In this document: positions 1 through 37,806 of the stretch, piece after piece
How positions within the stretch are numbered: the first letter of the stretch is position 1
Layout of the letters: each line of letters starts with the position of its first letter
NCBI GenBank assembly: GCA_964576115.1
Contig: CAZNUA010000034.1
Coordinates: forward strand, 1-37,806
Source: an uncultured Gemmatimonadota bacterium
GTDB lineage: Bacteria; Blakebacterota; Blakebacteria; Blakebacterales; Blakebacteraceae
DNA: 37,806 nucleotides
Direction: 5' to 3'
Position numbers and translations under genes: made by a program
The notes under the pieces: model-generated
Database searches by the model: none
The model's input: only the letters and a program-made list of their open reading frames with translations
What the model was told of the DNA's origin: nothing

Positions 1-210
1 CTGCTCAGACGATGGCGTCTGGCGCGCGAAACGTCGGCTTTCGAAGCCCGCCTGGAGGAACTCGATCGGCGCCAGCTCGACCTGGAACGCCGCCGGGGCG
101 AGATCGGCGATGACGCCGCCCTGGAACGCATCGCCCGCGAGGAATACGGTATGGTCCGCAGCGGCGAACACGTGTACCGCCTGGCCTCGCCCGATACCAC
201 GGGAAGGTGA
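1..210 (+). CDS. ftsB: Septum formation initiator FtsB/DivIC family, 5'-truncated by the window edge
   Basis: Not in the ORF track. Frame +1 translates to ...ARLEELDRRQLDLERRRGEIGDDAALERIAREEYGMVRSGEHVYRL...TGA(208-210): a coiled coil followed by the E-x-x-A-R-x-x-x-G-M-V-x-x-G-E signature. Confidence 0.8.
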   Translation: MLRRWRLARETSAFEARLEELDRRQLDLERRRGEIGDDAALERIAREEYGMVRSGEHVYRLASPDTTGR

Positions 211-8960: not shown

Positions 8961-8961
8961 G

Positions 8962-9803
8962 ATGACACGGGGGGGACGCAACCGGCTGCTGAAAGTCGTT
9001 GTCACGGTCGTCATTCTCGCGGTCCTGGCCGCCCGGCTTGATCTGGACCGTATCTGGCAGCTGCTGCGAGCCGCCCAGGCCCTGCCGATCGCCATGGCGA
9101 TCGGGCTCCTGGCCGCCAGCCACCTGGTCGTGGCCCTGATCTGGCGCCGCCTGCTCGCTGCCGTTGACGTCCGGCTGAGCGTGGAACGCACCGTCAGTCT
9201 CTACTACGCCGGACTGTTTCTGAATATCTTCTTCTTCGGCAGCGTGGGAGGGGACGGCTACCGGGTCTACGCGGCCTGGAAGGGGACCGGCGGTTCGGGG
9301 CGCCCGGTTCTGGCCGCCACCCTGCTCGAGCGACTCATCGGAGTCGCCGCCCTGCTGCTACTGGGGACGATCGCGGTTCTGGCGAAGTTCGCCGTCCTGC
9401 CCGGCGCTTTCCGCTGGCTGTTGTTAACGCTCTCGGGAGGCGGCACCATCGCGGCCCTGCTGATCATCCTGGTTCCCGGGCCGCTGGGGCGGCTGGTTCT
9501 ACGGCTGGCCCGAAACCGCTCGGAAATGACCCGTGAGCGGATCGCCGGGACTCTCGCCGCCATGCAGCAGGCCGGACAGCCGGGTGCGGTCGCAGTGATG
9601 CTACTGGTGGCTGTAGCTGCTCAGGGGGTGCGCATCTGGACCCACTGGTGGTGCGCCCGGGCCCTGGGTATCGAGGTGGCTGCAGCAGACCTCTTTCTGG
9701 TCATCCCGATCATCGCCGTGGCTTCGGGGCTGCCGATCTCGATCGGCGGCCTGGGCGTGCGCGAGGCCACCGGCGTACTCCTGCTGGCACCGCTCGGGGT
9801 CGC
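8962..9803 (+). CDS. Flippase-like membrane protein (lysylphosphatidylglycerol synthase TM / UPF0104 family), 3' end lost in gap
   Basis: GLFLN..GSVGGDGYR, LLERLIG, LPISIGGLGVRE motifs; runs into the N gap at 9804. Confidence 0.85.
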
Positions 9804-9903
9804 NNNNNNNNNNNNNNNNNNNNNNNNNNNNNNNNNNNNNNNNNNNNNNNNNNNNNNNNNNNNNNNNNNNNNNNNNNNNNNNNNNNNNNNNNNNNNNNNN
9901 NNN
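9804..9903. other. Assembly gap (100 N)
   Basis: Run of N; the two flanks belong to different genes. Confidence 1.
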
Positions 9904-10716
9904 TTCGATCCGGCGGTGCGCGTCATCACCTTCCGGCGCAATTTCGGCAAGGCGGCCGCTCTCGACGCCGCTTTCCGCCGCACCCGCGGCCGTTATGTGG
10001 CGACCATCGATGCCGATCTGCAGGACGACCCCGCCGAAATTCCCCTGCTGATCGACTATCTCGAACGGTCGGATCTCGATCTTGTCAACGGCTGGAAAAA
10101 GGTCCGGCGCGATCCGCTGACCAAGCGCATCCCCTCGAAATTCTGGAACCTCCTGACCCGGATCATCAGCGGGCTCCGGCTCCACGACTTCAACTGCGGG
10201 CTCAAACTCTATCGGCGCGAAGTCGTCAAGGCCCTGCGGGTGCACGGCGATCTGCACCGCTACCTGCCCGTCCTGGCTCACTGGGCCGGTTTCCGGGTGG
10301 GCGAGAAACCGGTCAACCACCGGCCCCGCCGCTTCGGCCGGACCAAGTACGCCGGACCGGGCCGGTTCGTGCGCGGTTTTCTCGACCTCATGACGGTCAA
10401 ATTTCTGAACCGGTACGTTTCCAGTCCGCTGCACTTCTTCGGCCTTTTCGGACTGCTGCTTCTGACCGTCGGGGTGGTCCTGAACCTCATCCTGCTCTGG
10501 GAGAAGATCCAGGGCCACGGGATCGGCGATCGCCCTCTGCTCTTCCTGGCCGTCATGCTGGTGATCGTCGGGATCCAGTTCATCTCCTTCGGCCTGCTCG
10601 GCGAGATGATGGCCCGCGAACCGCAGGAGGGCCAGACCTACCAGGTGGAGAACCTCTGGGGCTTCGAGTCCGGGTCGAATTCCGATCCGCACGGGGAGAC
10701 GGACCGCGCTCCATGA
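9904..10716 (+). CDS. ArnC/GtrB-like polyprenol-phosphate glycosyltransferase (GT2), 5' end lost in gap
   Basis: RRNFGKAAAL, TIDADLQDDP, HDFNCGLKLYR, LHRYLP and two C-terminal TM helices. Confidence 0.9.
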   Translation, partial: FDPAVRVITFRRNFGKAAALDAAFRRTRGRYVATIDADLQDDPAEIPLLIDYLERSDLDLVNGWKKVRRDPLTKRIPSKFWNLLTRIISGLRLHDFNCGLKLYRREVVKALRVHGDLHRYLPVLAHWAGFRVGEKPVNHRPRRFGRTKYAGPGRFVRGFLDLMTVKFLNRYVSSPLHFFGLFGLLLLTVGVVLNLILLWEKIQGHGIGDRPLLFLAVMLVIVGIQFISFGLLGEMMAREPQEGQTYQVENLWGFESGSNSDPHGETDRAP

Positions 10717-25041: not shown

Positions 25042-25071
25042 CCACCCTAACGAGTTCCCCGGTTGGCCACC

Positions 25072-26778
25072 ATGATCCGATCTGACCACCCTGAAAACCC
25101 CTCCCTCTTCCCGTTAACCGGCGCTGCCGGCGAGCCGCTGCGGGCCGATCGGGTACTCATTATCGGTCTTGACGGTGCCACCTGGTCGATTCTGGGTCCG
25201 GCGCTGGAAGGCGGCTACATGCCCCGGCTGGCGCATCTGGGCTCGACCGGCTGCAGCGGCGTATTGACCTCGGTCGTGCCGGCGATTACCCCGGCAGCCT
25301 GGTGCTCCTTCCAGACCGGCTCGGATCCCGGCCGGACGGGGATCGTCGATTTCACCCGTTTCGACCGCGCCGCGGGGTGCGAGGTGCCGGTCGATACCCG
25401 CCGTCTGCCCGAAACGCTCTGGGAACGAGTTGGCCGGGCCGGTCGCCGGGTGGGAGTGGTGAACCTGCCCATGACCTGGCCCCCGCGCGAGGTGAACGGA
25501 TTTCTGGTCTCGGGTCTGCTCACCCCTTCGACCGGATCGGTCTTCACCCATCCTCCCGAACTGGGGTCGGAACTGCTCGAGGCCGTACCCGACTACCACA
25601 TCTTCAATCTCGAAACAGCGGTCGAGGAAGCCAACCGGGAGAGCCTTGAGGCTTTCCTCGATTTCGCCGCCGCTACGGTCGCGACCCGGGCCGAAGCCGC
25701 CTGCTGGCTGGTGCGGCGCCAGCCGGTCGAGCTGCTGATGGTTCACTTTCAGGCGACCGATATCGTTCAGCACGTTCTCTGGCACTATCTCGATCCCGGC
25801 CACGAGCGTTTCGATCCCGCGAAAAACCGGCTCATTTTCGAGCGGTTCTACGGCGCCCTCGACCGTGCTGTCGGAAGAGTGCTCGATACCTTCGCCGCAC
25901 AACGCTCCGATTCCCCGGTGACTTTCGTGATCTCCGATCATGGCTTTCAGCGGCATGCGAAGAGGTTCAACCTCTGGCTCTGGCTGGTGCAGCAGGGGTG
26001 GCTCATACCCGGGCTGGCGGGTGCTGCCGCTTTGAGCGACACGGTCGCCGGCGGGATTGTGACCGGGACGACGGCCGCCTTCCCGGAGAGCGATCCTCCG
26101 GTCGCATCGAGCAGCACCTGGAGTCAAGCACCGGTCGATCTCGCCACTTCCCGCGCCCTTTCGACCGGACGTAGCAACGAGGCCTTCATCTGGCTGCTGG
26201 TCGACGATCCTGTGGAGCGTGACCGGATCGCGGACACGATCGTCACCGATCTGGAAGCGGTCCGCGACCCGCTCGACGGCGAGCCGCTCGTGGAAAGGGT
26301 CTGCCGCCGGGAGGATATCTGGAGCGGTCCCCGCCTCGAGGAATGTCCCGATCTGGTCGTGGTGCCGGCCGGACCGGTTTCAATCACCGGTCGGTTCGAC
26401 CCTGGAACAGACCTGGTGATCCCGGTCGAACCCGGTCACGACTTCCATGCCGGCCGCCATCATCCCGACGGCATCATTATCGTGTCCGGGCCCGGAATTC
26501 TCCCCACTCCCGTTCCAGCTCACACAGTCGGGGGTGCCGGCACTGACGGCCCGGTCGCCACGCCGGATTCCGTACCCTTCACCGACCTGAAAACCCGTCT
26601 TGTCGATGTGGCTCCGGCCGTTCTGGCCCTGCTGGGTATCGAGGAAGAGGGCCCCGGTCGGGGAGAAGACGCCGCCAATACGGCCGAAGACGCTGCCCAT
26701 ACGCCCGGGGACGCTGTCTATACACCAGAGGAAAAGGCGATTATCGAAAAGCGCCTGCGGGATCTGGGTTATTTCTGA
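25072..26778 (+). CDS. Alkaline phosphatase superfamily protein (phosphodiesterase/nucleotide pyrophosphatase type)
   Basis: IIGLDGATW, SVVPAITPAAW (Thr nucleophile), TDIVQH, ISDHGF, HHPDG, C-terminal RLRDLGY; alternative TTG start at 25063. Confidence 0.88.
   Translation: MIRSDHPENPSLFPLTGAAGEPLRADRVLIIGLDGATWSILGPALEGGYMPRLAHLGSTGCSGVLTSVVPAITPAAWCSFQTGSDPGRTGIVDFTRFDRAAGCEVPVDTRRLPETLWERVGRAGRRVGVVNLPMTWPPREVNGFLVSGLLTPSTGSVFTHPPELGSELLEAVPDYHIFNLETAVEEANRESLEAFLDFAAATVATRAEAACWLVRRQPVELLMVHFQATDIVQHVLWHYLDPGHERFDPAKNRLIFERFYGALDRAVGRVLDTFAAQRSDSPVTFVISDHGFQRHAKRFNLWLWLVQQGWLIPGLAGAAALSDTVAGGIVTGTTAAFPESDPPVASSSTWSQAPVDLATSRALSTGRSNEAFIWLLVDDPVERDRIADTIVTDLEAVRDPLDGEPLVERVCRREDIWSGPRLEECPDLVVVPAGPVSITGRFDPGTDLVIPVEPGHDFHAGRHHPDGIIIVSGPGILPTPVPAHTVGGAGTDGPVATPDSVPFTDLKTRLVDVAPAVLALLGIEEEGPGRGEDAANTAEDAAHTPGDAVYTPEEKAIIEKRLRDLGYF
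26665..26727 (+). repeat. In-frame 21-bp tandem repeat, 3 degenerate units (EDAANTA/EDAAHTP/GDAVYTP)
   Basis: GAAGACGCCGCCAATACGGCC GAAGACGCTGCCCATACGCCC GGGGACGCTGTCTATACACCA. Confidence 0.8.
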
Positions 26779-26843
26779 CGACTGCTCATGGCGCTCTTGT
26801 GAGAGAGGGGGGGTAAGGGGGTATCCTCTGGGCAGCCTGTTTT

Positions 26844-26887
26844 TATAGTTAACAGTTGTATACTATAATATACATCCGTTAATTATA
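26844..26887. repeat. AT-rich imperfect inverted repeat, 19-bp arms, 6-nt centre
   Basis: TATAGTTAACAGTTGTATA-CTATAA-TATACATCCGTTAATTATA, 16/19 complementary; contains TATAAT on both strands. Confidence 0.85.
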
Positions 26888-26908
26888 GTAAAAGTCCCTG
26901 CAACGGGA

Positions 26909-27135
26909 ACATGTGTCCTCGCCGGTTCAGATCCGATCCTCGCGCGGATACATATGTCCTCGCNNNNNNNNNNNNNNNNNNNNNNNNNNNNNNNNNNNNN
27001 NNNNNNNNNNNNNNNNNNNNNNNNNNNNNNNNNNNNNNNNNNNNNNNNNNNNNNNNNNNNNNNACATGTGTCCTCGCCGGTTCAGATCCGATCCTCGCGC
27101 GGATACATATGTCCTCGCTGGTTCAGATCCGATCC
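26909..27135 (+). repeat. 41-bp non-coding tandem repeat, copy number unresolved
   Basis: Unit ACATRTGTCCTCGCYGGTTCAGATCCGATCCTCGCGCGGAT at 26909-26949 and 27064-27104; partial copies at 26950-26963 and 27105-27135. Confidence 0.9.
26964..27063. other. Assembly gap (100 N) flanked by an identical 55-bp sequence
   Basis: 26909-26963 is identical to 27064-27118. Confidence 1.
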
Positions 27136-27167
27136 GCATTCGCGGTCCTCGCACGAAAGAAACGGGT

Positions 27168-27920
27168 ATGCGTAAACCGACCAGACCCTCCCTGTATCAC
27201 GAAACACCTCTCGATCTCATCCTGGGAACACCGGCGGCGGTCCGTATCCTCCGCGTCTTCTCGAACGAAACAACCCCCCTGACGGTTCCCGATCTTGCCT
27301 CTCTGGCCGGGCTCTCGCGGGCGGGGGCACATCGGGCTCTGTCACGGCTCGTCCAGACCGGGCTGGTGCGTGATGTCGGATCGGGACATGCCATGATCTA
27401 CCGAATCAATGAGATCCATTATTTCGCGGACATGGTTGAACAGATCTTCCGCAGGGAACAGACCTTCAGTGCCGGTCTCTACCACGTGGCACGGGATCTC
27501 GTGACCCGTACGAAGGAAAATATCGTCGCCATCTGGCTGATTGAATCGGAGCAACCCCGGGATTCCGAACCGGCTTTGAGGCAACGCCGGGGTCACAGGC
27601 CGGTTTCGAAGCACATCCGTGGTCCCAGGCCGTTTTCGGATTACCTCCAGGGACTCGATCCGGTGGATGAGGATGATGGCATCCACCGCGGATTGATCAT
27701 CGTCGTCGAGGGTGAAGATACCGACGGAGTCAGGCGGGCTCTCAAAGAAGAGATATTACTGCAGAGCACCTACGAGCCATACAACGAGGTCGAGGTGATG
27801 ACACAGACTGAACTCCGGAGATTTACAGCGGCATATCGGGACCGCTGGCAGGTGATCATGGACAACGCTTTCGTCCTCTACGGGCTCTTTCCGCGTGACT
27901 ACGATGAGCTGGGAGAGTGA
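27168..27920 (+). CDS. Winged-helix DNA-binding protein with a degenerate nucleotidyltransferase-like C-terminal domain
   Basis: PLDLILGTPAAVRILRVF..LTVPDLASLAGLSRAGAHRALSRLVQTGLV HTH. The C-terminal IVAIWLIES...GLIIVVE...EVEVMTQTELRR..I...A.VLYG pattern parallels MNT domains. Confidence 0.75.
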   Translation: MRKPTRPSLYHETPLDLILGTPAAVRILRVFSNETTPLTVPDLASLAGLSRAGAHRALSRLVQTGLVRDVGSGHAMIYRINEIHYFADMVEQIFRREQTFSAGLYHVARDLVTRTKENIVAIWLIESEQPRDSEPALRQRRGHRPVSKHIRGPRPFSDYLQGLDPVDEDDGIHRGLIIVVEGEDTDGVRRALKEEILLQSTYEPYNEVEVMTQTELRRFTAAYRDRWQVIMDNAFVLYGLFPRDYDELGE

Positions 27921-27998
27921 AGCGCAGGGGATCCTGACTATCCAGGCGCCTGAAGACCGGAGACCCTGAATATCCGGGCGTCAGAGGCGCAGGGAACC

Positions 27999-28979
27999 TC
28001 ACTTCTCAGCCGACGGGAAGAGGCGCTTTCGCCAGCGGTGCAGGGTGTGGCGGGTTTTTCGTCGCACAACCGCCAGCGGGCCCGGACGAGCCCGACGCAG
28101 AACCGTACGGAGTTTTTCAGGAACGTCGTCTGGAGCCGGACAGGCGGGCAAACTCTGGTCACCACCATTGCGGGGGTAGCCGAGCAGATCGAGCAGGGGC
28201 CCGGCGATCCGTAGAGCGGTGTCTTTCTGTTTCGGAGTCAGGACTTCACGCCACTGGCCCCCGGTACCGCGGCGGAGATGATCGGGGTGTTCGCGCTTCA
28301 TGCTCTCGAACGACGTGGCTTCGATGATGCGCTCGCATTGGCCGGGATCTAGGTCCACCTCCAGGTAGGTCAGCAGCCTTTCCAGCTCGGCGGCCGGTTC
28401 GACCTTCAGACGCTCATAGAATACGACGTACATGCCCTGTGAGAGCTGTGCGGGCCGTGCGGGACCATACAGCAGATAGGGCGCAACGTGAAGAACCCAG
28501 TCCCGCTGGGCCTGCTCGAAATTGTCTGTGAGCCACTCCCCGGCGCTCTCGTAGGGCACCGGGTAGTGCCGGCGCGAGTACGGGGTTTGAGTGAAATTGG
28601 CTGTTGATATGGCCACGTCGCGCGGATCGCGGCAGAGGTAGAGAATCTTTTCGAAGCGTTCGAGAAAGGCGGCACTCCGGTCACACCAGGGCGAGTGGGT
28701 CCAGACCAGGGTGGCCGTGTCGAGGTAGGTCTCGATGTCGGGGACCGGTTCCCGAACCCGATTGGCGATCCGCCAGAAAACCCCCTCCTCGGTGATGTCG
28801 ACCACGTCATGGCCGGCCTGATCGGCCTGACTCAACGACCACGAGCGGGCCTGCTCGTGGATCGGGTGGGTTTCGATCCAGCTGCCCTCCCAGCGTCCGG
28901 CAGCCTGCAGGATCTCGCGCAGCAGGTGATAGAGCCAGGAATTGCCACTCTTGGCCAGTCCGATCTGCAGCCAGCTCAT
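27999..28979 (-). CDS. PAPS-dependent sulfotransferase (Sulfotransfer_1 type)
   Basis: 5'-PSB GLAKSGNSW, 3'-PB YLCRDPRDVAIS, YERLK, C-terminal RRGTGGQWRE. Confidence 0.92.
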   Translation of the reverse strand: MSWLQIGLAKSGNSWLYHLLREILQAAGRWEGSWIETHPIHEQARSWSLSQADQAGHDVVDITEEGVFWRIANRVREPVPDIETYLDTATLVWTHSPWCDRSAAFLERFEKILYLCRDPRDVAISTANFTQTPYSRRHYPVPYESAGEWLTDNFEQAQRDWVLHVAPYLLYGPARPAQLSQGMYVVFYERLKVEPAAELERLLTYLEVDLDPGQCERIIEATSFESMKREHPDHLRRGTGGQWREVLTPKQKDTALRIAGPLLDLLGYPRNGGDQSLPACPAPDDVPEKLRTVLRRARPGPLAVVRRKTRHTLHRWRKRLFPSAEK

Positions 28980-29178: not shown

Positions 29179-30027
29179 TCACGGTTCATGTTCCCGCAGC
29201 GGTGGTTTGCCGACCGCCGAACGGTATGTATTGGCCAGCCGGAGCGCAGCCCGGTCACCCAGCAGGCGGGCCAGTCCGGCCTGTATCCTGACCCGCAGCA
29301 GGCGGGGGTGACACCATACAGGCCAACGGCTCACACCGTGTTCCCGCCGGGCCCGCAGAACCTCATGCACGGTTGCCACAGCGTAGCGCCGGCTGAGCGA
29401 GTAACCGCCTTCCTGCATGCCGGCCACGTCCAGACCGTCGATGAAGCGGGCCCCGGTCTCGCCCAGCGCCCGCAGGGCGAAGGCATAATCGCCGGCGATG
29501 CGATACGATTCGTCGAAACCGCCCAGGGTTTCGAACAGATGCCGGTCGAAAAAGGTGCTGGGATTGGGCAGGGCCATGTTCTCGCGCATTTTCACCCGGG
29601 CCTGCGGCCACGGTTCGCCGAGCGTCTCGAGCCGGCGCCCGGCCGCGTCGACGACATGCGTGAGCCCGTACACGATTCCGACCGCATTTTCGGCCTCGGT
29701 GAGATGGGGGACGGCCCGGGCCACGACCTCGGAATCCCAGAGGAAGTCATCGGCTCCCAGAAAGCAGCACCAGCGTCCCGAGACGTGCTCCAAGGCCTTG
29801 TTCCAGGCGTTGTATATGCCGCGGTCGGGGGCCGATTCCCAATACGTGTTGGCCCCGGCGCGATCAGTGAGAATCTCGATCGTACCGTCGGTCGAGCCAC
29901 CGTCCATGACGATGTGCTCGAAGCGGCGTGAACTCTGAGACGCAAGGGAGTCGAGCAGGCGGGGGAGGGTAGCGGCCCCGTTGAGAACCGAGGTGATGAC
30001 CGCTATGACGGGTTCGAAATCACTCAT
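29179..30027 (-). CDS. Family 2 glycosyltransferase (WcaE-like)
   Basis: MDGGSTDGT, SAPDRGIYNAWNKAL, FLGADD, GFDESYRIAGDY. Confidence 0.92.
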   Translation of the reverse strand: MSDFEPVIAVITSVLNGAATLPRLLDSLASQSSRRFEHIVMDGGSTDGTIEILTDRAGANTYWESAPDRGIYNAWNKALEHVSGRWCCFLGADDFLWDSEVVARAVPHLTEAENAVGIVYGLTHVVDAAGRRLETLGEPWPQARVKMRENMALPNPSTFFDRHLFETLGGFDESYRIAGDYAFALRALGETGARFIDGLDVAGMQEGGYSLSRRYAVATVHEVLRARREHGVSRWPVWCHPRLLRVRIQAGLARLLGDRAALRLANTYRSAVGKPPLREHEP

Positions 30028-30143: not shown

Positions 30144-31493
30144 ATGAGAAATCTGGCCAACATATTCCTGAAGAGCCTCGAAGAGGGAAGCGAGGAGTCG
30201 CAGGTGGCCCGGGGAAGCGCGGGTACCTTCTCACTGAAAGTGGGCTCGCGGGGTCTTTCCTTTGTGACCGCCGTCATCCTCGGTCGGCTCCTGGGGGCCG
30301 AGGGATACGGGGCCTATTCCTGGGCCATTGCGACGGTCGGCCTGCTGCTGATCTGCTCCCTGGCCGGTTTCGAACGGTTGATCGTCCGGGAGCTGGCGGT
30401 GTACCGGGCTACCGGACAGTGGGGTCTTTTCCGGGGACTGCTCCGGCGGGCCGCGACCGTGACCGGAAGCCTGTCGATCGGGCTGGCCCTGCTGACCGCC
30501 GTTCTGCTGCTGTTCCTGCGGCCGGTTCTGGAGCCGACCATGGCTGCCGCCCTGCTGTTGGCCCTGCCGATCCTGCCCCTGATCACCCTGATGGGTGTCA
30601 AGCAGTCGGTCCTGCAGGGCTTGCGCCGGGTTGCGACCGGGCATCTTCCGGGCCTGCTGGTGTTGCCCCTGCTGCTGCTGACCCTGGTCGTTCTCCTGCC
30701 CCTTCTGACCGGGCGGCCCCTGACCACCCAGCTTGCGGTCGGTTCGCACCTCGCCGCCGCCGCTGCAGCTCTGGCTGTGGCCCTGGTGCTGGTACGTCCG
30801 GTCATCCCCGGTGAGGTCAGGACCGCCGAACCGGTCTACCAGACGTCGCAGTGGATCAGAGCGGCCCTGCCGCTGCTGCTTGTCTCGAGCATGATCATGC
30901 TCAACCAGCGGATCGATATACTCATGCTGGGAGCGATCGGGGGAGCCGGCCAGACAGGGATCTACACCGCCGCCAACCGGGGTGCCGAACTGGTCAGCTT
31001 CATCATCAAATCGATCAACCCGGTCCTCTCGCCGCTCATCGCCGCTCTCTACGCCCGGGGCGAGATCGAGCGGCTGCAGCGGATTGTCACCAAGAGTGCC
31101 CGGGTGATCCTGCTCCTGACCGTACCGATCGCAATCGCGATGATTCTCTTCGGGCGCTGGTTCCTGCTTCTCTTCGGACCCGAGTTCGCGGACGGGACGA
31201 CCGCTCTTACCATCCTGACAGTCGGTCACCTGTTCAGTGCCGCCATCGGATCGGTGGGCATGCTGCTCATCATGAGCGGGCACGACCGCGACGCGGCCCT
31301 GACCTTTGCCGGTTGCGGGGTGCTCAACATCATCCTGAATGCTCTCTTCATTCCTCGCTGGGGGCTGAACGGTGCCGCGATAGCGACCACCATCAGCCTG
31401 GTGACCTGGAACGTCATTCTCACCCTCGTACTCTCCCGGCGGATGGGTATTGCGGCCCATGCCTTCCGCCGGCTCGGGAATCGGAAGGAGTAA
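30144..31493 (+). CDS. Wzx-type polysaccharide flippase
   Basis: GRLLGAEGYGAY, IDILMLG, GIYTAANR, NIILNALFIPRWGLNGAAIAT. Confidence 0.92.
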   Translation: MRNLANIFLKSLEEGSEESQVARGSAGTFSLKVGSRGLSFVTAVILGRLLGAEGYGAYSWAIATVGLLLICSLAGFERLIVRELAVYRATGQWGLFRGLLRRAATVTGSLSIGLALLTAVLLLFLRPVLEPTMAAALLLALPILPLITLMGVKQSVLQGLRRVATGHLPGLLVLPLLLLTLVVLLPLLTGRPLTTQLAVGSHLAAAAAALAVALVLVRPVIPGEVRTAEPVYQTSQWIRAALPLLLVSSMIMLNQRIDILMLGAIGGAGQTGIYTAANRGAELVSFIIKSINPVLSPLIAALYARGEIERLQRIVTKSARVILLLTVPIAIAMILFGRWFLLLFGPEFADGTTALTILTVGHLFSAAIGSVGMLLIMSGHDRDAALTFAGCGVLNIILNALFIPRWGLNGAAIATTISLVTWNVILTLVLSRRMGIAAHAFRRLGNRKE

Positions 31494-31498
31494 GGGCC

Positions 31499-32356
31499 AT
31501 GGCCAACCGGCTTCCCGAGGGTGCGGCACTCCTGCTGACCCTGCCCCGTTCCGGCAGCACCTGGCTTTTCGATGCCCTGCGCGCCCACCCCGCCGTGGAG
31601 ATGCTAACTGCCGCGACCCTCTTCCGCCGGCTCGGGCTTCACGGTCGGCGCTATCCCCGCGATCTCTCCGAGCCCGATCCCGATCGGGGGCAGCGGATCG
31701 AGATCCGGCCCCGACAGTGGGCCTGCGTGCCCCCCTTCGAGGTGCCGGGGGCCGCCGAACTGATCTCCAAAGACACCCGGGCCCGGCGATATGCAGTCGA
31801 AAAACTCCACCCCCATTTCTACGATTGGGATCTCGACCGCTTCATCGAGCGCCTGGAACGACTCGAGCGCCGGGTTACGGTACGGCTGATCTACCTGGTC
31901 CGCGATCCGGAGAGCAGCATGCTCAGCTTCGTACGGTACCAGGAGCGCAATCCCGACTGGAACCCCGACGTATCGCGAACCGATCTGCCCCGCCGGACCA
32001 CCCGGTTCTATGAGGCGATTGCAGCCTGCCGGCGGCTCCGTTCCGGACCTGTTCTCGACTACCGGAAGCTGCAGAACGATTTCATCGGCACCCTGACCGG
32101 ACTCTTCGAGTACCTCTGGCCCGGGCGGGCGGAGGGGGAACGGGCCCGGGAGCGCGAGTTGGCCGAACGCATCGCCGCGGCCACGGACCGCAGCGGGCGC
32201 ACCTCGGGCCACGGTTCGTTCTTCGAAAGCCGGGCCGCCCAGACTGCCGACGACACTGCCGCCCTGTTGGTACAGATCGGCGGCGATCGGGAAGCGATCG
32301 ACCGCTGCCGGCGGGCCTACCGGCAGCTCGTGCCCGAAGACGGGGTGGAGGCCTGA
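31499..32356 (+). CDS. Sulfotransferase-fold protein
   Basis: AGGAG upstream of ATG 31499; LTLPRSGSTWL..AL.AHP (5'-PSB), EK, IYLVRDP..S (3'-PB), LDY. Confidence 0.82.
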   Translation: MANRLPEGAALLLTLPRSGSTWLFDALRAHPAVEMLTAATLFRRLGLHGRRYPRDLSEPDPDRGQRIEIRPRQWACVPPFEVPGAAELISKDTRARRYAVEKLHPHFYDWDLDRFIERLERLERRVTVRLIYLVRDPESSMLSFVRYQERNPDWNPDVSRTDLPRRTTRFYEAIAACRRLRSGPVLDYRKLQNDFIGTLTGLFEYLWPGRAEGERARERELAERIAAATDRSGRTSGHGSFFESRAAQTADDTAALLVQIGGDREAIDRCRRAYRQLVPEDGVEA

Positions 32357-32360
32357 GCCG

Positions 32361-33269
32361 ATGTCATCGCCGGGGCGTCTGCCGGCTGCGCTCTGGATGC
32401 GGGCCAGAACCCTCGTCCAGCTGCGCCTGCTGCGGCGGACCCCGATCGTCATCTACCAGATGGGCAAGGTGGGGTCGCGCTCGATCTACGACAGCCTGCG
32501 GGCGCAGGGCATCGGTCCGGCGATCCACGTCCACCGGATGAACCCCGCCCATATCGCCGCTGTGGCCGAGCGGAACCGGCGGGCCGGGCGGCCCCCACCC
32601 ACCGGAGATGTGCTCGGCCCCCTGCTGTATCAGCAGGCCGTGAAGCGGGGCCGGCCGCTGGAGGTCATCACCCTGGTGCGCGATCCGGTGGCCCGCAACT
32701 GGTCGGCCTTCTTCGAGAATCTCGACCGCTTCGCCGGCCCGCTCTCCGATCGACAGCGGCTCGATCCCTCCGAACTCAGGCGGCTTTTCCTCGAGGTCTA
32801 TCCGCACGAGATACCTCTGACCTGGTTCGATGACGAATTCCGCGCCGCGCTCGGGATCGACGTGTATGCCACCCCGTTTCCCCACCGGAAGGGGTGGCTC
32901 GAAATCGACGCTGGACCGCACCGGGCTCTGATACTCAAACTCGAGGCGGGGGATGCGGTCATCGAAGAAGCGGTCGGCGCTTTCCTGGGACAACCGGGGT
33001 TCAGACTGCAGCGGACCAACGTGGGGGTGGAGAAACCGTATGCCCGCCTTTACGATGAAGTGACGGGATCGCTCCGGCTGTCCGAGGAGTATCTAACGCG
33101 GATGTACGAGTCGCGTCTGGCGACCCATTTCTACTCCGCCGCCGAAATCGCCGCCTTCCGCGAACGGTGGGGGGGCGGTTCGGATTCCGCGCCGGCCGAC
33201 GATATCGCTCCCCGGACAGCCGGGGAAGCGGGCAGGAATCCGGAAACCGAAGGGAGCCCGGGCTCATGA
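32361..33269 (+). CDS. Putative capsular polysaccharide synthesis protein (NKWYS-type, sulfotransferase-like fold)
   Basis: IYQMGKVGSRSI, ITLVRDPVARNWSAFFEN, WFDDEF..LGIDVY..PF, N.G.EK.Y, HFYS. Confidence 0.8.
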   Translation: MSSPGRLPAALWMRARTLVQLRLLRRTPIVIYQMGKVGSRSIYDSLRAQGIGPAIHVHRMNPAHIAAVAERNRRAGRPPPTGDVLGPLLYQQAVKRGRPLEVITLVRDPVARNWSAFFENLDRFAGPLSDRQRLDPSELRRLFLEVYPHEIPLTWFDDEFRAALGIDVYATPFPHRKGWLEIDAGPHRALILKLEAGDAVIEEAVGAFLGQPGFRLQRTNVGVEKPYARLYDEVTGSLRLSEEYLTRMYESRLATHFYSAAEIAAFRERWGGGSDSAPADDIAPRTAGEAGRNPETEGSPGS

Positions 33270-33910
33270 CCTCGGAATGGATAGATATCAGCGCCACTAT
33301 CGACCCCGCCACCCTCCCGATCTGGCCCGACAGTCCTCCGGTCGAACTGACCCTGATCCACAGCCTCGAGGCGGGTGAAGAGTGGAACGAGACGCAAGTG
33401 AGTTTCAGCGTCCATACCGGCACCCATCTCGATGCCCCCGCTCACTTCATCCCGGGGGGCGGCACGGTCGAGGCCATCGCACCCGACCGGCTCTGCGGTC
33501 CCTGCCATGTAGCCGGCCTCGAGGGCCGGGATGTCATCACCGCCGACGATCTGGAGCAGGCCTCTGTTCCCGAGAGCGTCGAGCGGCTCCTGCTCAAAAC
33601 CGACAACGGTCGTCGGTGGGGACCGCAGTTCGATCCCGGATTCACCGGGCTGGATGTGAGTGCGGCCGGGTGGGTCGTCGAGCGAGGTCTGGAACTGATC
33701 GGAATCGATTACCTCTCGATCCAGGCTTTCGAAGAACCGAACGAGGTTCACCGCCGCCTGCTGGGAGCGGGGGTGATCGTCCTCGAAGGAATCATTCTGG
33801 CCGGTATCGAACCGGGCTTCTGGGAACTCGTCTGCCTGCCGCTCAAACTGGCCGGGGCCGAGGGAGCTCCCGCCCGGGCGATGCTCAGAACACCGGAGGC
33901 CGGGCTATGA
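33266..33910 (+). CDS. Cyclase family (kynurenine formamidase-like) metal-dependent hydrolase
   Basis: HTGTHLDAPAH, LIGIDYLS, VHRRLL, LPLKL..AEGAPARA; ATGA overlap. Confidence 0.92.
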   Translation: MTSEWIDISATIDPATLPIWPDSPPVELTLIHSLEAGEEWNETQVSFSVHTGTHLDAPAHFIPGGGTVEAIAPDRLCGPCHVAGLEGRDVITADDLEQASVPESVERLLLKTDNGRRWGPQFDPGFTGLDVSAAGWVVERGLELIGIDYLSIQAFEEPNEVHRRLLGAGVIVLEGIILAGIEPGFWELVCLPLKLAGAEGAPARAMLRTPEAGL

Positions 33911-34854
33911 GCGAGGCGTACCGCATTCTCATCACCGCCCCGTACTTTCTGCCGGTTCTGGAGCGTTTCCGCGACCGCCTCGAGGCGGCGGGGTGCGAGC
34001 TGGTCCCCTATCCCGTTACCGAACGGGCCGGTGAAGAGGAACTCCTGACCCGGATCGCCGGTATCGACGGCGTGATCTGCGGCGACGATGCCTTCACCCG
34101 CCGGGTCGTCGAGGCCACCGATCGGCTCAAGGTCATCGCCAAATGGGGAACGGGCATCGATTCGATCGACACCGGGGCCTGTGCCGAACGGGGGATCGCG
34201 GTTCTGAACACCCCCGACGCGTTCAGCCTGCCGGTGGCCGATACGGTTCTGGGCTACGCTCTCATCTTCGCCCGCCGGCTTCTCGAGACCGACCGTGCGA
34301 TGCAGGCGGGGGAGTGGTCCAAGCAGAGCGCCGCTGCGCTTTCGGAATGGACCTTCGGCATCGTCGGGGTCGGGAATATCGGCCGCCAGGTAGCCCGTCG
34401 CGCAGCCACCTTCGGTCCCCGCCTGCTCGGCACCGATATCGTCGAAATAGATGCCGGCCTGCGCGCCGAAACCGGACTGGAAGCGGTCGAATTGACGCAG
34501 TTGCTTGAAACCAGCGACGTGGTCAGCCTGAACTGCGATCTCAATCCGACCAGCCGCCACCTCGTCAGGACCGCCACCCTCGAACTCATGAAACCGGGGG
34601 CGGTTCTAATCAACACCGCCCGGGGAGCGGTTGTAAAAGAAAGCGACCTCGTTGCGGCCCTCGATTCCGGCCGACTCGGCGGTGCCGCACTCGACGTTTT
34701 CGAAGTCGAACCGCTTCCGGCCGACTCCCCCCTGCGCGGCCGGCCCAACGTCCTGCTCGGCCCGCATAACGCCAACAGCAGCCCGCGGGCCTGGGAGGCA
34801 GTCCACGAGAACACGGTCACCAACCTGCTGCAGGGCCTGGCCGGGGCGGAGTAG
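33907..34854 (+). CDS. D-2-hydroxyacid dehydrogenase (phosphoglycerate dehydrogenase-like, no ACT domain)
   Basis: KWGTGIDSID, GIVGVGNIG, LINTARG, GAALDVFEVEP, LGPHNA. Confidence 0.92.
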   Translation: MSEAYRILITAPYFLPVLERFRDRLEAAGCELVPYPVTERAGEEELLTRIAGIDGVICGDDAFTRRVVEATDRLKVIAKWGTGIDSIDTGACAERGIAVLNTPDAFSLPVADTVLGYALIFARRLLETDRAMQAGEWSKQSAAALSEWTFGIVGVGNIGRQVARRAATFGPRLLGTDIVEIDAGLRAETGLEAVELTQLLETSDVVSLNCDLNPTSRHLVRTATLELMKPGAVLINTARGAVVKESDLVAALDSGRLGGAALDVFEVEPLPADSPLRGRPNVLLGPHNANSSPRAWEAVHENTVTNLLQGLAGAE

Positions 34855-34916
34855 GGGCATACGGAAGCCGTCGCAGCGACAGAGAACCGGCACGAAGGCA
34901 GAGAAGGGACAGTACC

Positions 34917-35678
34917 ATGGAGAAACAGGTCGTTCTCATCACCGGCGTACTGGGTGGGATCGGGCTGGCCACGGCGGCGACCTTCCGGGCTGACGGGTGG
35001 CATGTGGTCGGGGTGGATGTCGCCGAACCTCCCGCGGGAACCAGCCCCGAAACCGATCGCCTCCTCCAGTCCGATATCGCCGATCCCGAAGCGGTCACCG
35101 CCCTGATCGAAGGGATCGCCGCAGAAGAGGGGCGTCTGGACGCTCTGATCAACAATGCCGCCGTACAGATCTGCAAGCCGTTCGAGGAGACCACTCTCGA
35201 GGACTGGGATCGGCTCATGAGCGTGAATCTGCGGGCGCCCTTCTGGTGCATCCGGCAGGCCCTGGAACTTCTGCGTTCCGGACCCGGGGGTTCGGTTGTC
35301 AACGTGAGTTCGGTCCATGCCGTGGCGACGTCGCAAGAAATCGCCGCTTATGCTTCGAGCAAGGGCGCTCTGGCCGCGCTGACCCGGGCCCTGGCGGTGG
35401 AACTGGCCGGGGAAGGCATCCGCATCAACGCCGTCCTGCCCGGGGCGGTGGACACCCCCATGCTGCGGGCCGGTTTCGCCCGCGGACACCTCGAAGGCGC
35501 CAACCTCGAGGACCAGCTTCGCGAGTTCTACGACCGGCATCGAATCGGGCGGATTGCTCGACCGGAAGAAATCGCCCAGGCGATCCTCTTTCTGGCCGAC
35601 AACCGCCGCGCGGCCTTCATCACGGGCGAGAGCCTGGTGGTGGACGGCGGTGTGACCGTCACCCTGAGCACCGAGTAG
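34917..35678 (+). CDS. Classical SDR oxidoreductase
   Basis: TGVLGGIG, INNAA, NVSSVH, YASSK, RINAVLPG, TGESLVVDGG. Confidence 0.93.
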   Translation: MEKQVVLITGVLGGIGLATAATFRADGWHVVGVDVAEPPAGTSPETDRLLQSDIADPEAVTALIEGIAAEEGRLDALINNAAVQICKPFEETTLEDWDRLMSVNLRAPFWCIRQALELLRSGPGGSVVNVSSVHAVATSQEIAAYASSKGALAALTRALAVELAGEGIRINAVLPGAVDTPMLRAGFARGHLEGANLEDQLREFYDRHRIGRIARPEEIAQAILFLADNRRAAFITGESLVVDGGVTVTLSTE

Positions 35679-35681
35679 ATC

Positions 35682-36377
35682 ATGGCTGATCGATTCACTG
35701 CCCTGGTGCCGATGAAAGGCCATTCCGAGCGTATCCCGGGCAAGAACCTGCGACCGCTGGCCGGCAGGCCGCTCTGCTTCCACGTCCTCGATATGCTGCA
35801 GGCGGTACCGGCCGTGGAGAGAATCGTCATCAATACAGATTCCGAGGAGATCGCGGCCGCCTGCCGGGCGGAGTTCGCGGTCACCATCCACGAGCGCCCC
35901 GGGGAAATCAGGGGCGATATGGTCTCGATGAACCGGATCATCGCCGACGATCTGGACCGCCTGCCAGAGGGCGAGTTCTTTCTCCAGACCCATGCCACCA
36001 ATCCCCTGCTGAGTGCGGTCACGCTCTCGGCGGCTGTCGCTGCCTGGCTCGGGGATCGCGAACGTTGTGACTCCCTCTTCTCGGTCACCCGGTATCAGGG
36101 CAGGTTTTACGACCGTGCCGGCGGGCCGGTCAATCACGACCCCGCCGAACTGATCCGCACCCAGGACCTGGCGCCGCTCTACGAAGAGAATTCCTGTTTC
36201 TACCTTTTCAGCCGGACCTCGTTCGCCGCGACCGGGCGGCGGATCGGAACCGCTCCCCGGTTGTACGAGATCGATCGGCTCGAAGCCATCGATATCGATG
36301 ACGAGCAGGACTGGCTGCTGGCCGAGGCTCTCTTCGAATTGCAGCGGCGCACTCCGGGCGGGGAGAACCGTCCGTGA
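35682..36377 (+). CDS. Acylneuraminate (ulosonate) cytidylyltransferase family protein
   Basis: VPMKGHSERIPGKN.R.LAGRPL, INTDS, QTHATNPLL, RTQDL..YEENS, DIDDEQD. Confidence 0.9.
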   Translation: MADRFTALVPMKGHSERIPGKNLRPLAGRPLCFHVLDMLQAVPAVERIVINTDSEEIAAACRAEFAVTIHERPGEIRGDMVSMNRIIADDLDRLPEGEFFLQTHATNPLLSAVTLSAAVAAWLGDRERCDSLFSVTRYQGRFYDRAGGPVNHDPAELIRTQDLAPLYEENSCFYLFSRTSFAATGRRIGTAPRLYEIDRLEAIDIDDEQDWLLAEALFELQRRTPGGENRP

Positions 36378-37735
36378 GCGGTTCCGGGGACAACCGCGGC
36401 GATCGGAACGGCAACCGGGAGGCGGATTCCACCGCTCTCGCTCACGCCCCCCGCAACCGGCTGGCGATCCGTCGGCGGGCCGGGCTGCACTTTCTCATCC
36501 GGGCGGCTTCGAAGATCGTCCGCACCCTGCGCGGCCGCCGTCTGCCCGACCGCTTCGCGACCGTCGCCCTGGTGCCGGGGCCCGGCAGCGGGCCGGCGGA
36601 ACTGGGCTCCGCGCTCAACCGGCTGGCCTGGTACCTGGGTAGCGCCGGCGCCGGCAGCGATGTCGGGGCCGAGTACCGGGTCGACTGCCTGGTGCCTCCC
36701 GACCTGCTCTCCGTCAATCCCGTCGTCGGATCCGAACAGCGGGACTATCTCGAACACCTGCCCGAAGTCGCCCTGCGCACGACCGCCGAGGCCTCGGGCC
36801 GGGATTACGACTGGCTCCTGCTCGATGCGGTGCGCGAGCTGGGACGCTGGAAGTGGCTGCGCTTCATCGACCGGATCCGGATCGTCGACCCGACCTTCTA
36901 CAGCGGGGTCGAGCATGCCGGCTGGCAGATGGTCGCCGAGCGTACCGTCGATCGGGCCGAGGGGGCCGAGCGGGAGGCGGCCGCTTCGGCCTTCGAGAAA
37001 CTGGTTGTCGAGCACGGGGGGGCCGACGAGGTGGTGGTGCTGGGTACCGGACCGTCGGTCGAGGAAGTACTCGACCTGGACCTCTCCGGCCGACCGGTGG
37101 TGATCTGCAACAGCCTGGTCAGAAATGCGGAGCTTCTCGAACGCCTGCAGCCAGCCGTACTCTGCTTCGCCGATGAGGTCTTCCACCTGGGGCCGAGCGC
37201 CTATGCCGCCGCCTTTCGCGACGATCTCTGCCGGGTAGTCGAGCAATATCGACCCTGGCTGGTGACCCGCCCCGACGGGGCCGCCCTGCTGCGTCGGCAC
37301 TATCCCGGGCTCGCCGATCGGCTCATCGGCATACCGCTCACGGCCCGACGGTGGAACGTGCCGTGCAGCGAAGCCTTCCGGGTTCGTCCGACCGGCAACA
37401 TCATGACGATGTACATGCTCCCCGTGGCCGCCCGACTCGGACAGACCATCCTCATCGGCGGTTCCGACGGGCGCCGGCCCGATGAAACATATTTCTGGCG
37501 TCACGGCCCCTCGGTGCAGTACGACGATCTCATGGCGACCGCCTTCGCCACCCACCCCTCCTTCTTTCGCGATCGGATGTATGCCGATTACTATGCCGAA
37601 CACATCGCCCGGCTCGAAGATCTGCTGACCGAACTGGAGGCCCGCGGGCACGACGCCAGGGGGATCACCTCGAGCTGGATTCCGGCTCTGACCCGTCGCT
37701 CCGCACCCCGGCCCGCTGACTCACCTTCCGATTGA
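36374..37735 (+). CDS. Putative CMP-ulosonate glycosyltransferase (CstII/GT42- or Maf/DUF115-like fold) with an uncharacterised N-terminal domain
   Basis: VVVLGTGPSV....VVICN and NIMTMYMLPVAARLGQTILIGGSDG resemble the GNGPS/CN and ALGY..IYL.GID motifs of CstII/Maf proteins; GTGA-coupled to the cytidylyltransferase. Confidence 0.6.
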   Translation: MSGSGDNRGDRNGNREADSTALAHAPRNRLAIRRRAGLHFLIRAASKIVRTLRGRRLPDRFATVALVPGPGSGPAELGSALNRLAWYLGSAGAGSDVGAEYRVDCLVPPDLLSVNPVVGSEQRDYLEHLPEVALRTTAEASGRDYDWLLLDAVRELGRWKWLRFIDRIRIVDPTFYSGVEHAGWQMVAERTVDRAEGAEREAAASAFEKLVVEHGGADEVVVLGTGPSVEEVLDLDLSGRPVVICNSLVRNAELLERLQPAVLCFADEVFHLGPSAYAAAFRDDLCRVVEQYRPWLVTRPDGAALLRRHYPGLADRLIGIPLTARRWNVPCSEAFRVRPTGNIMTMYMLPVAARLGQTILIGGSDGRRPDETYFWRHGPSVQYDDLMATAFATHPSFFRDRMYADYYAEHIARLEDLLTELEARGHDARGITSSWIPALTRRSAPRPADSPSD

Positions 37736-37757
37736 AAACGGGACGGGGGATGCCGTC

Positions 37758-37786
37758 TTGACACGAAGACATCCCGTCGGTAGTGT
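37758..37786 (+). promoter_or_regulatory. Sigma-70 promoter pointing out of the window
   Basis: TTGACA (37758-37763), 17-bp spacer, TAGTGT (37781-37786). Confidence 0.7.
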
Positions 37787-37806
37787 GCAGCCCTGATGGG
37801 CGTGCC

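Follow-up and report, generated by a model that had tools for sequence, protein, structure and literature searches.

A conserved gene cassette that may make, activate and transfer a CMP-linked acidic sugar in a Blakebacterota surface-glycan locus

Where would the acid come from in a locus that encodes a NeuA-like cytidylyltransferase and no NeuB-type synthase? The question is posed by a 37,806-nucleotide stretch of DNA from an uncultured Gemmatimonadota bacterium (Blakebacterota in GTDB), which is the whole of the 37.8-kb contig C34 of the 3.96-Mb assembly G000 (completeness 93.66%) and is called the window throughout. Near its end lies a cassette of five genes, encoding a cyclase-family hydrolase, a D-isomer 2-hydroxyacid dehydrogenase (HADH), a short-chain dehydrogenase/reductase (SDR), a NeuA-like cytidylyltransferase and an unnamed protein, ORF5. 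Keto-acid sugars activated with cytidine monophosphate (CMP), which include sialic acids, 3-deoxy-manno-octulosonic acid (Kdo), pseudaminic acid (Pse) and also legionaminic acid (Leg), are key surface determinants, and to our knowledge all those known are built by synthases that condense phosphoenolpyruvate (PEP). No NeuB, KdsA, NeuC or Pse/Leg-type aminotransferase is found among the 36 open reading frames (ORFs) of the window scanned against Pfam. That the cassette is a conserved, uncharacterised module for CMP-acid glycosylation is well supported; on balance we lean towards reading it as a self-contained module that makes an acidic keto-sugar, activates it with CMP and adds it to a sulfated, Wzx-exported glycan.

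A first-pass annotation of the window had described the five genes as a tightly linked run, had named the first four products and had found no NeuB, KdsA, NeuC or Pse/Leg genes around them; all of this stands, the four names agreeing with Pfam. The cyclase and HADH genes overlap by 4 bp (ATGA), as do the cytidylyltransferase and ORF5 genes (GTGA), and the remaining junctions are one 3-bp and one 62-bp gap. All five ORFs are free of internal stops, with an even GC content at third codon positions (GC3) of 0.75-0.82. The features of the cassette are as follows.

33266..33910, + strand: cyclase-family metal-dependent hydrolase, kynurenine-formamidase-like (PF04199, E 7e-25)
33907..34854, + strand: D-isomer 2-hydroxyacid dehydrogenase, HADH (PF02826, E 3e-55; PF00389, E 4e-18)
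34917..35678, + strand: classical short-chain dehydrogenase/reductase, SDR (PF13561, E 2e-57; PF00106)
35682..36377, + strand: NeuA-like cytidylyltransferase, CTP_transf_3 (PF02348, E 1e-23)
36374..37735, + strand: ORF5, 453 residues, putative CMP-sugar-dependent glycosyltransferase of an unnamed family (no Pfam or NCBIfam match)
36545..36955, + strand: ORF5 N-terminal Rossmann-like domain, residues ~58-194 (weak structural matches)
36950..37714, + strand: ORF5 C-terminal Maf/MptE/sialyltransferase-like domain, residues ~193-447 (structural alignment of a model)

The activating enzyme and the putative transferase

The cytidylyltransferase is a clear member of its family (PF02348, 84.6 bits against a cut-off of 22.6) and aligns over its full length with NeuA 9ftb (E 2.4e-16) and mouse CMP-N-acetylneuraminic acid (Neu5Ac) synthetase 1qwj (E 7e-16), whereas its matches to KdsB structures are mostly confined to the first ~60-130 residues. 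It carries RTQD at residue 159 (RxQD), DID at 204 (DxD) and an N-terminal loop, PMKGHSERIPGKN, aligned with ARGGSKRIPRKN of NeuA; we take these to be the sugar-carboxylate-, metal- and phosphate-binding motifs, respectively. A further segment, YEENSCFY, aligns with YENGSFY of the mouse enzyme at the NeuA-type sugar site. The models for specific substrates lie far above its scores, which are 87.2 bits for the PseF equivalog TIGR03584 (cut-off 205.7) and 27-36 bits for the KdsB models (cut-offs 155-281). With characterised enzymes of the NeuA/KdsB type, the group that is esterified is the anomeric hydroxyl of a 2-ulosonic acid in cyclic form, and we know of no other substrate class for such enzymes with this motif set.

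The HADH has the GVGNIG motif of the NAD loop, NTARG and the PH motif (Arg/His), and is a member of the D-isomer 2-hydroxyacid dehydrogenases; it is nearest to short phosphoglycerate dehydrogenases (PGDH) and glyoxylate/hydroxypyruvate reductases, with PGDH as its best NCBIfam model (184 bits against a cut-off of 454) and 1wwk as its top PDB match (E 4.5e-51), and its PDB matches include the 'probable 2-ketogluconate reductase' 9m0t (E 5.8e-35). The SDR has the motifs TGVLGGIG, NNA and YASSK, the last an intact YxxxK; glucose 1-dehydrogenases (3vtz and 2dtd, E 1e-39 to 4e-38) are among its PDB neighbours, and every NCBIfam match lies under its cut-off. The cyclase-family protein (PF04199, 88.3 bits against 23.1) has HTGTHLDAPAH at residue 50, an intact HxGTHxDxPxH motif; its top PDB match is the kynurenine formamidase 4cog (E 9e-32), and it scores 127.7 bits against the kynurenine formamidase (arylformamidase) model TIGR03035, under the cut-off of 223.05.

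The relatives of the HADH raise an alternative in which the activated molecule is a small hydroxy- or keto-acid akin to glycerate, hydroxypyruvate or phosphoglycerate, made by a PGDH-like HADH, nucleotidylated, and added by ORF5 as a non-carbohydrate acidic substituent. The best matches of the HADH are of this kind, and a HAD phosphatase in the aldolase-type cassettes described below suggests a phosphorylated small intermediate. The NeuA-type sugar-site motifs kept by the cytidylyltransferase (RTQD, and YEENSCFY aligned to the mouse enzyme), the esterification chemistry of its characterised relatives, and the GarL/YfaU-like aldolase of the sister cassettes, which builds longer 2-keto-acid sugars, all point away from it, and we judge such a product improbable.

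For ORF5, the first-pass annotation had noted CstII/Maf-like motifs and had proposed structure prediction as a check. The motifs GTGPS (residue 224), CNS (245) and GGSDGR (362) are present and are invariant or nearly so in the family; their likeness to those of CstII is presumed, and it is the fold of Maf and CstI that the computed structure bears out. An AlphaFold2 model built on a 22-sequence alignment has two domains (pLDDT 88.8, pTM 0.89), and was compared exhaustively with 48,161 chains by VIA-align. The top match of the C-terminal domain is the Maf glycosyltransferase 5mu5 (Z 13.4, root-mean-square deviation 3.9, 200 aligned residues), followed by MptE, an HPPK (8sd5, Z 12.7), the Campylobacter alpha-2,3-sialyltransferase CstI (2p56, Z 11.1), SteA (9hmy, Z 10.7), the animal GT29 sialyltransferases 2wnf (Z 9.2), 6apj (9.0), 4js1 (9.0) and 5bo8 (8.9), and several thiamin pyrophosphokinases (Z 6-7.7), with unrelated structures at Z 5 or lower. 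Foldseek gave probabilities of 1.00 for MptE (8sd5), 0.98 for human ST8Sia (5bo8) and 0.90 for Maf (5mu5), with E-values that are all weak (best 4e-4) and low whole-chain TM-scores, so that the clear matches are those of the exhaustive aligner only. As modelled, the C-terminal domain shares the GT-A-variant sialyltransferase fold of Maf, GT42 and GT29 enzymes. The N-terminal domain has weak matches (Z 4.6-7.1) to low-molecular-weight phosphatases and GT-B half-domains. His271, His377 and His394 are invariant in the family, as is Asp365.

The family of ORF5 is large. A word-indexed search returned 22 relatives, none of them named, and an exhaustive profile search of 1.84 billion proteins gave 1227 representative clusters at E<=0.001 and 915 at E<=1e-30. 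In a protein atlas the nearest clusters are labelled 'hypothetical protein', and one row (score 0.87) has PF01973 in 17% of its members, which we treat as a lead only. The homologue in a Clostridium isolate matches PF01973 (MptE-like, DUF115) at E 6e-7 and 29.8 bits, under the gathering score, and weak PF01973 matches occur in five of the 22 family members (best E 7.6e-4); ORF5 appears to be one branch of the DUF115 superfamily. Among 22 long relatives, ORF5-type domains are fused to FkbM methyltransferase domains in ten, GT1/GT4-type domains in ten, GT2 domains in four and a sulfotransferase domain in one; three carry a separate MptE-like domain and four have no Pfam match. These fusions support a role for ORF5 in glycan assembly. 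A tblastn search of 72,556 plasmids with ORF5 gave no match, and viral contigs, with the queries used, yielded no relatives of either ORF5 or the cytidylyltransferase.

The same structural matches leave room for an ORF5 that is not a transferase. It would then be a nucleotide-dependent kinase or pyrophosphokinase, as MptE is, or act in regulation or as a scaffold, as SteA does, and another enzyme of the locus would transfer the acid. MptE, SteA and the thiamin pyrophosphokinases indeed share the fold, and the window holds many GT2/GT4 genes that could do the transfer. Nevertheless, the top structural match is a Maf glycosyltransferase with five sialyltransferases behind it, the gene overlaps that of the cytidylyltransferase here and adjoins it in other loci, and large glycan-assembly proteins carry domains of its type in fusion with those of GT1, GT2, FkbM and sulfotransferase enzymes; a non-transferase ORF5 therefore seems to us very improbable.

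Family membership, fold and gene linkage are the grounds on which we propose the activation and transfer steps. The NeuA-like enzyme would make a CMP-2-ulosonic acid, esterified at the anomeric hydroxyl, and ORF5 would take this CMP-sugar as its donor in the manner of Maf and GT42/GT29 enzymes, adding the acid to the sulfated glycan of the locus before Wzx export. The first two of these steps, taken jointly, strike us as fairly probable.

Distribution of the cassette and the source of the acid

The cassette is conserved across Bacteria and Archaea. ORF5 homologues were followed in 30 reference-genome loci, 31 with the window. The bacterial loci come from Gemmatimonadota- and Zixibacteria-labelled metagenome-assembled genomes (MAGs), Flavobacteriales, Saprospiraceae, the Clostridium isolate (Clostridium sp. 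BSD9I1), Peptococcaceae, Actinomycetota, Planctomycetota and others, and the archaeal ones from Halobacteriales (among them the complete genome of Haloglomus halophilum, strain ZY41, twice) and a Thermoplasmatales MAG. A cytidylyltransferase is encoded in 24 of the 31 loci, an HADH in 22, an SDR in 15, a cyclase in 12, an HpcH-family aldolase in 10 and NeuB in one; of the seven loci in which the cytidylyltransferase is missing, several are short or truncated by the end of their contig. Its gene directly abuts that of ORF5 in 11 of the 24, and the cyclase is absent from half of these cytidylyltransferase-bearing loci.

A second sample was anchored on the cytidylyltransferase, so that ORF5 had no part in its selection; 33 loci of at least 8 kb came from the 80 best among 208 metagenome relatives. 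An HADH is present in 24 of these, an SDR in 22, an aldolase in 16, a cyclase in 10 and NeuB in four, and three have none of HADH, aldolase and cyclase. Either ORF5 or an MptE-like (DUF115) protein of ~275-365 residues is encoded in 18; the query ORFs of four loci (L056, L072, L075 and L079) reach PF01973 at E 7e-8 to 6e-14, and the rest were called by tblastn to three of those. The activating enzyme is thus linked to two partners, a 2-hydroxyacid dehydrogenase and a protein of the DUF115 superfamily. In the GTDB phylum of the host itself, 7 of 10 species genomes carry the cytidylyltransferase, and two further stretches have the same cassette. The cassette is rare in a sample of 300 Clostridia genomes, of which four match at E<=1e-35, one being the query's own genome and the others 36-40% identical.

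Two types of cassette can be told apart. The window's type comprises an optional cyclase, HADH, a classical SDR, the cytidylyltransferase and ORF5. A sister type combines the cytidylyltransferase with a GarL/YfaU-like class II aldolase, HADH, an extended SDR (epimerase/dehydratase), a cyclase and a HAD phosphatase; the aldolase is GarL-like (1dxe, E 4.6e-47), with the hydroxyketoacid aldolase 6r62 also among its PDB matches. In both types the cytidylyltransferase shares 46-56% identity with that of the window.

Several of these loci show features of their own. The same-phylum homologue at G012:C66:7843-8499 has two in-frame TGA codons and the cytidylyltransferase gene of L010 gives two tblastn segments, so that either may be a pseudogene or a sequencing error. 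In a Halobacteriales MAG (L031) the cassette lies beside the oligosaccharyltransferase gene aglB. In the Thermoplasmatales MAG (L034, 5565-11959) it consists of sulfotransferase, GT2, cytidylyltransferase, HADH, SDR, ORF5 and cyclase genes at a GC3 of ~0.28-0.36, against 0.45-0.86 in the flanks, and is preceded by a DDE transposase; it looks like a horizontally acquired island. On the Haloglomus halophilum chromosome (L035, 9206-16531) the cassette is flanked by transposase and integrase fragments, and the second ORF5 homologue of that genome (L023) has no cytidylyltransferase or HADH genes nearby. Loci that combine cytidylyltransferase, HADH, SDR, DUF115 and PMT_2 genes have conserved proteins of ~665-700 residues with no Pfam match flanking the cytidylyltransferase (L056, 5925-7982 and 8672-10669; L075, 5884-7938; L079, 2310-4403). 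Two low-GC aldolase-type cassettes (L072, 2934-7926; L084, 4566-7987) additionally encode a GFO/IDH/MocA oxidoreductase and dehydroquinate (DHQ)-synthase-like and DUF386 (YhcH-like) proteins, with a SIS-domain protein in L072; these extra genes suggest that a more elaborate acid is reached by a longer pathway.

If the cassette is not self-contained, its acid would be made elsewhere in the genome, and the first-pass annotation had proposed a search there for neuB, kdsA and an aldolase. The expected absence of NeuB was borne out, with 0 matches in G000 and a control search positive in 9 of 14 known genomes. A single KdsA is present, ~1.8 kb from its own KdsB-type gene (182 bits) on contig C11. 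The only HpcH-family gene encodes a citrate lyase CitE-ACP fusion beside aconitase, and was rejected as a sugar aldolase on that ground. Across 17 carrier genomes a full-length NeuB is encoded in five and is absent from 12, two of which have weak partial matches, the one in G001 overlapping a DAHP-synthase-family match. Nine carrier genomes were searched for both families, and neither NeuB nor DAHP_synth_1/KdsA was found in five of them, one each from Actinomycetes, Thermoplasmatales, Halobacteriales and Actinomycetota and one Acidimicrobiia MAG; G004, G005, G315 and G317, in which neither was found, are MAGs of unstated completeness.

These results bear on the explanation that the acid is Kdo from KdsA here and a NeuB product in other hosts, the cytidylyltransferase serving as an additional CMP-Kdo or CMP-nonulosonate synthetase reserved for the glycan, while HADH, SDR and cyclase would tailor the acid or make an unrelated substituent and ORF5 would transfer it. 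It draws on the KdsA of the host, on the NeuB of the five carrier genomes and on Maf enzymes, which transfer Neu5Ac and Kdo to Ser/Thr according to the accessible part of 10.1101/2020.06.03.131540. Against this, the host KdsA already adjoins a KdsB-type gene of its own, the cassette enzyme resembles NeuA from end to end, and G000 has no NeuB to supply it. Where NeuB does lie near the cassette, in the Clostridium locus L038 and in L032 and L084, a separate PseF-like cytidylyltransferase stands beside it; the check covered these three of the NeuB-bearing loci, the others being L064, L065 and L104. The absence of both synthase families from five of nine genomes also speaks against an acid made elsewhere, which would moreover leave unexplained the tight linkage of HADH to the cytidylyltransferase (24 of 33 and 22 of 31 loci). 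We consider this explanation unlikely.

The operon and its surface-glycan locus

The five genes named in the first-pass annotation are the last of a longer series. Further upstream, on the same strand, the genes for the NKWYS protein, a sulfotransferase and a flippase follow one another just as tightly (spacings of 5, 4 and -4 bp from flippase to sulfotransferase to NKWYS to cyclase, the last again an ATGA overlap), which indicates an eight-gene operon at 30144-37735, so that the run begins at the flippase and not at the cyclase. The new promoter that had been placed after the last gene could not be recovered; a sigma-70 consensus scan of 33000-37806 gave 0 sites, and the TTGACA at 37758 has a -10 candidate 17 nt downstream that fits 3 of 6 positions. 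The genes around the start of the operon are as follows.

27999..28979, - strand: sulfotransferase (PF00685 Sulfotransfer_1, E 2.5e-24), with relatives in three related loci (cluster c25)
29179..30027, - strand: GT2 glycosyltransferase, divergent from the operon (PF00535, E 2e-17)
30144..31493, + strand: Wzx-type flippase, first gene of the operon (PF01943, E 2.3e-20)
31499..32356, + strand: sulfotransferase (PF13469 Sulfotransfer_3, E 3.9e-9); its ATG at 31499 was read from the sequence
32361..33269, + strand: NKWYS-domain 'capsular polysaccharide synthesis' protein (PF10364, E 2.3e-17)

Cluster c3, to which the GT2 gene belongs, is found in 22 of the 31 ORF5-anchored loci, a count to be read with the general abundance of GT2 enzymes in mind, and homologues of the NKWYS protein adjoin the cassette in L007 and L024. 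A surface-glycan locus fills most of the window, with two Wzx-type flippases, at least eight GT2/GT4 genes, RmlC/RmlD-like genes, a TMEM260-like GT-C enzyme, a type I phosphodiesterase-family protein, two sulfotransferases and the NKWYS-domain protein. The sulfated glycan suggested in the first-pass annotation is plausible in view of the last three, and no flagellin gene was seen in the window.

An exact comparison shows that the window's terminal 55 bases recur as the opening 55 of contig C24, whose first genes are accA, a PorV-like gene and genes for a peptidase and the cell wall. A contig starting with accA and a PorV-like gene thus adjoins the tail of the window, which places the end of the glycan locus at 37735. 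Exact 55-mers are in fact shared at both ends of the window (1-55 and 37752-37806), its head with the tail of C117 and its tail with the head of C24; such shared ends are typical of assembly-graph junctions and suggest the order C117-C34-C24.

Elsewhere in the window, an 809-residue protein with a TMEM260-like protein O-mannosyltransferase domain (5443-7872, + strand; PF11028, E 3.6e-46) is encoded upstream of the glycosyltransferase genes and adjoins genes for an extracytoplasmic function (ECF) sigma factor (3093-3803) and a MucB/RseB-like protein (4298-5380). A long ORF at 8830-10716 (+ strand) has an LPG_synthase_TM domain with a GT2 domain downstream; it overlaps neighbouring long ORFs and its boundaries are uncertain. 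The type I phosphodiesterase/nucleotide pyrophosphatase family protein (25063-26778, + strand; PF01663, E 1e-31) has homologues close to the cassette elsewhere too, in the four loci L007, L008, L014 and the archaeal, AglB-linked L031. The GC content falls to 0.55-0.60 at 26000-28000, from ~0.65 elsewhere, and this region encodes a helix-turn-helix (IclR/MarR-like) protein (26913-27920) just before the divergent sulfotransferase.

A candidate route to the acid

Comparison with characterised systems shows what the cassette shares with each. It resembles the pathway for CMP-sialic acid or CMP-Kdn (a deaminated sialic acid), which combines NeuB, NeuA and GT42/GT29 enzymes, in its NeuA-like activating enzyme and in the C-terminal domain of ORF5, which superposes on CstI and GT29; unlike that pathway, window and genome are devoid of NeuB, NeuC and the aminotransferase, HADH, SDR and a cyclase-family hydrolase standing in their place, and the activating enzyme falls far short of the PseF equivalog. 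The Maf flagellin nonulosonic-acid glycosyltransferases (DUF115/PF01973; 5mu5) include the best structural match of ORF5 and are likewise encoded next to a CMP-synthetase. The Clostridium ORF5 homologue, with its weak PF01973 match, even lies in a locus with PseB/PseI/PseG-like genes (the accessible part of PMC4000134 concerns a different Clostridium locus). In contrast to Maf, ORF5 of the window is outside PF01973, has another N-terminal domain and is encoded in a Wzx polysaccharide operon with sulfotransferases, and an archaeal cassette lies beside AglB. The CMP-Kdo pathway (KdsA, KdsB) uses an activating enzyme of the same superfamily and is encoded in the host on C11; it differs in the partial nature of the KdsB match and in the occurrence of the cassette in archaeal and actinobacterial genomes that have no KdsA-family match.

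Two further enzyme groups touch the supply of the acid. The HpcH/GarL/YfaU class II 2-keto-3-deoxy-sugar-acid aldolases are paired with an orthologous cytidylyltransferase in the sister cassettes, suggesting a 2-keto-acid sugar as the common type of product, whereas none is present in the window or in its closest relatives. The 2-ketogluconate reductases, glyoxylate/hydroxypyruvate reductases and PGDHs share family and catalytic motifs with the cassette HADH, which reaches no equivalog among them and whose oxidative direction and substrate are our proposal. The 4-deoxy-2-hexulosonic acid of the capsular K3 antigen of E. coli (Dengler et al. 1988, as cited in the accessible part of PMC10433991) is a precedent for hex-2-ulosonic acids in bacterial surface glycans, the likeness being one of residue type. 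Judged by these sequence comparisons, with no NeuB, no equivalog match for the cytidylyltransferase and an ORF5 outside PF01973, the cassette appears to fit no specific known pathway.

A route by oxidation, from aldose through aldonate to 2-ketoaldonate, had been outlined in the first-pass annotation and may be sketched from the remaining genes. The SDR would oxidise a sugar at C1 to a lactone, which would open spontaneously or with the help of the cyclase-family hydrolase, and a 2-keto acid, ulosonic or ulosaric, would then result from oxidation at C2 by the HADH. Of the schemes that draw on precisely the conserved genes of the window's type of cassette, this is the simplest, and it fits a minimal set of SDR, HADH and cytidylyltransferase with the cyclase as an option; a cyclase that is dispensable in half of the loci is expected if its step can occur spontaneously, as the opening of a lactone can. 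The sugar 1-dehydrogenases near the SDR and the 2-ketogluconate reductase in the HADH family are consistent with such chemistry. We nevertheless regard oxidation in place of PEP condensation, in this exact three-enzyme form, as doubtful.

Several points weigh against the self-contained reading and, in part, against the redox route in particular. None of the four recognisable enzymes reaches an NCBIfam equivalog cut-off, so that no substrate can be read from the databases. The nearest relatives of the cyclase-family protein are amidases (kynurenine formamidases) and not lactonases; amidase chemistry is known in this family, in which we know of no lactonase. NAD-linked oxidation of a 2-hydroxyacid is thermodynamically uphill and would need a pull from the cytidylyltransferase step. 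Kdo is available in the host, given its KdsA, and could be the acid here, a case that the first-pass annotation had itself named as contrary to its reading. The aldolase is present in about half of the related cassettes (16 of the 33 long cytidylyltransferase-anchored loci and 10 of the 31 anchored on ORF5) and occurs together with HADH, SDR and cyclase homologues in 5 of the 33; HADH, SDR and cyclase can thus serve an aldolase-based route, and HpcH-family genes lie elsewhere in all five other carrier genomes tested. For the transferase, ORF5 has no Pfam or NCBIfam match, PF01973 (gathering score 34.6 bits) not appearing even at E<=1; its sequence homology to DUF115 is weak, an hhalign comparison with DUF115 proteins of equivalent loci giving 26% probability and E 7e-4 over 46 columns around GxGPS...N; a profile search of the PDB gave a chance match only (E 0.88); and its fold is common to pyrophosphokinases (MptE, thiamin pyrophosphokinase) and SteA. 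The incompleteness of MAGs weakens every absence reported here, and all are provisional. Near-duplicates and close relatives among the loci (L046, 100% identical to the window; L049/L050; L063-L065) mean that the counts overstate independence, and as the ORF5-anchored, cytidylyltransferase-anchored and phylum samples overlap, they are not counts of independent events.

Since the sister cassette carries a class II (HpcH) pyruvate aldolase, a keto-acid sugar remains the likely product. We speculate that both types converge on 3,4-dihydroxy-2-keto acids, reached by double oxidation of an aldose or by aldol addition of hydroxypyruvate derived from a PGDH-like HADH and the HAD phosphatase. Somewhat more generally, and as a tentative proposal, the window's cassette may represent a third route to CMP-2-ulosonic acids beside PEP synthases (NeuB/KdsA) and aldolases, in which an aldose or uronate would be oxidised twice, at C1 by the SDR and at C2 by the HADH, to a hex-2-ulosonic or ulosaric acid that is activated by the NeuA-like enzyme and transferred by a member of the ORF5 family.

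Full-text literature searches, which exclude most subscription journals and supplements, returned no description of this gene set. That a NeuA-like enzyme and a transferase of sialyltransferase fold are paired with nothing but oxidoreductases, or in sister loci with a class II pyruvate aldolase, implies that one acidic sugar at least has gone unrecognised and is made in a new way. The cassette is spread over many bacterial phyla and occurs in archaeal N-glycosylation clusters as well. It offers a putative function and a testable donor for the ORF5 family, whose more than 1000 representative clusters have no Pfam or NCBIfam model, and provides a genomic marker for glycans that NeuB-based pathway predictors would miss. 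If the third route is true, these glycans, on bacterial polysaccharides and archaeal N-glycans alike, would bear a previously unrecognised 'sialic-acid-like' acidic residue.

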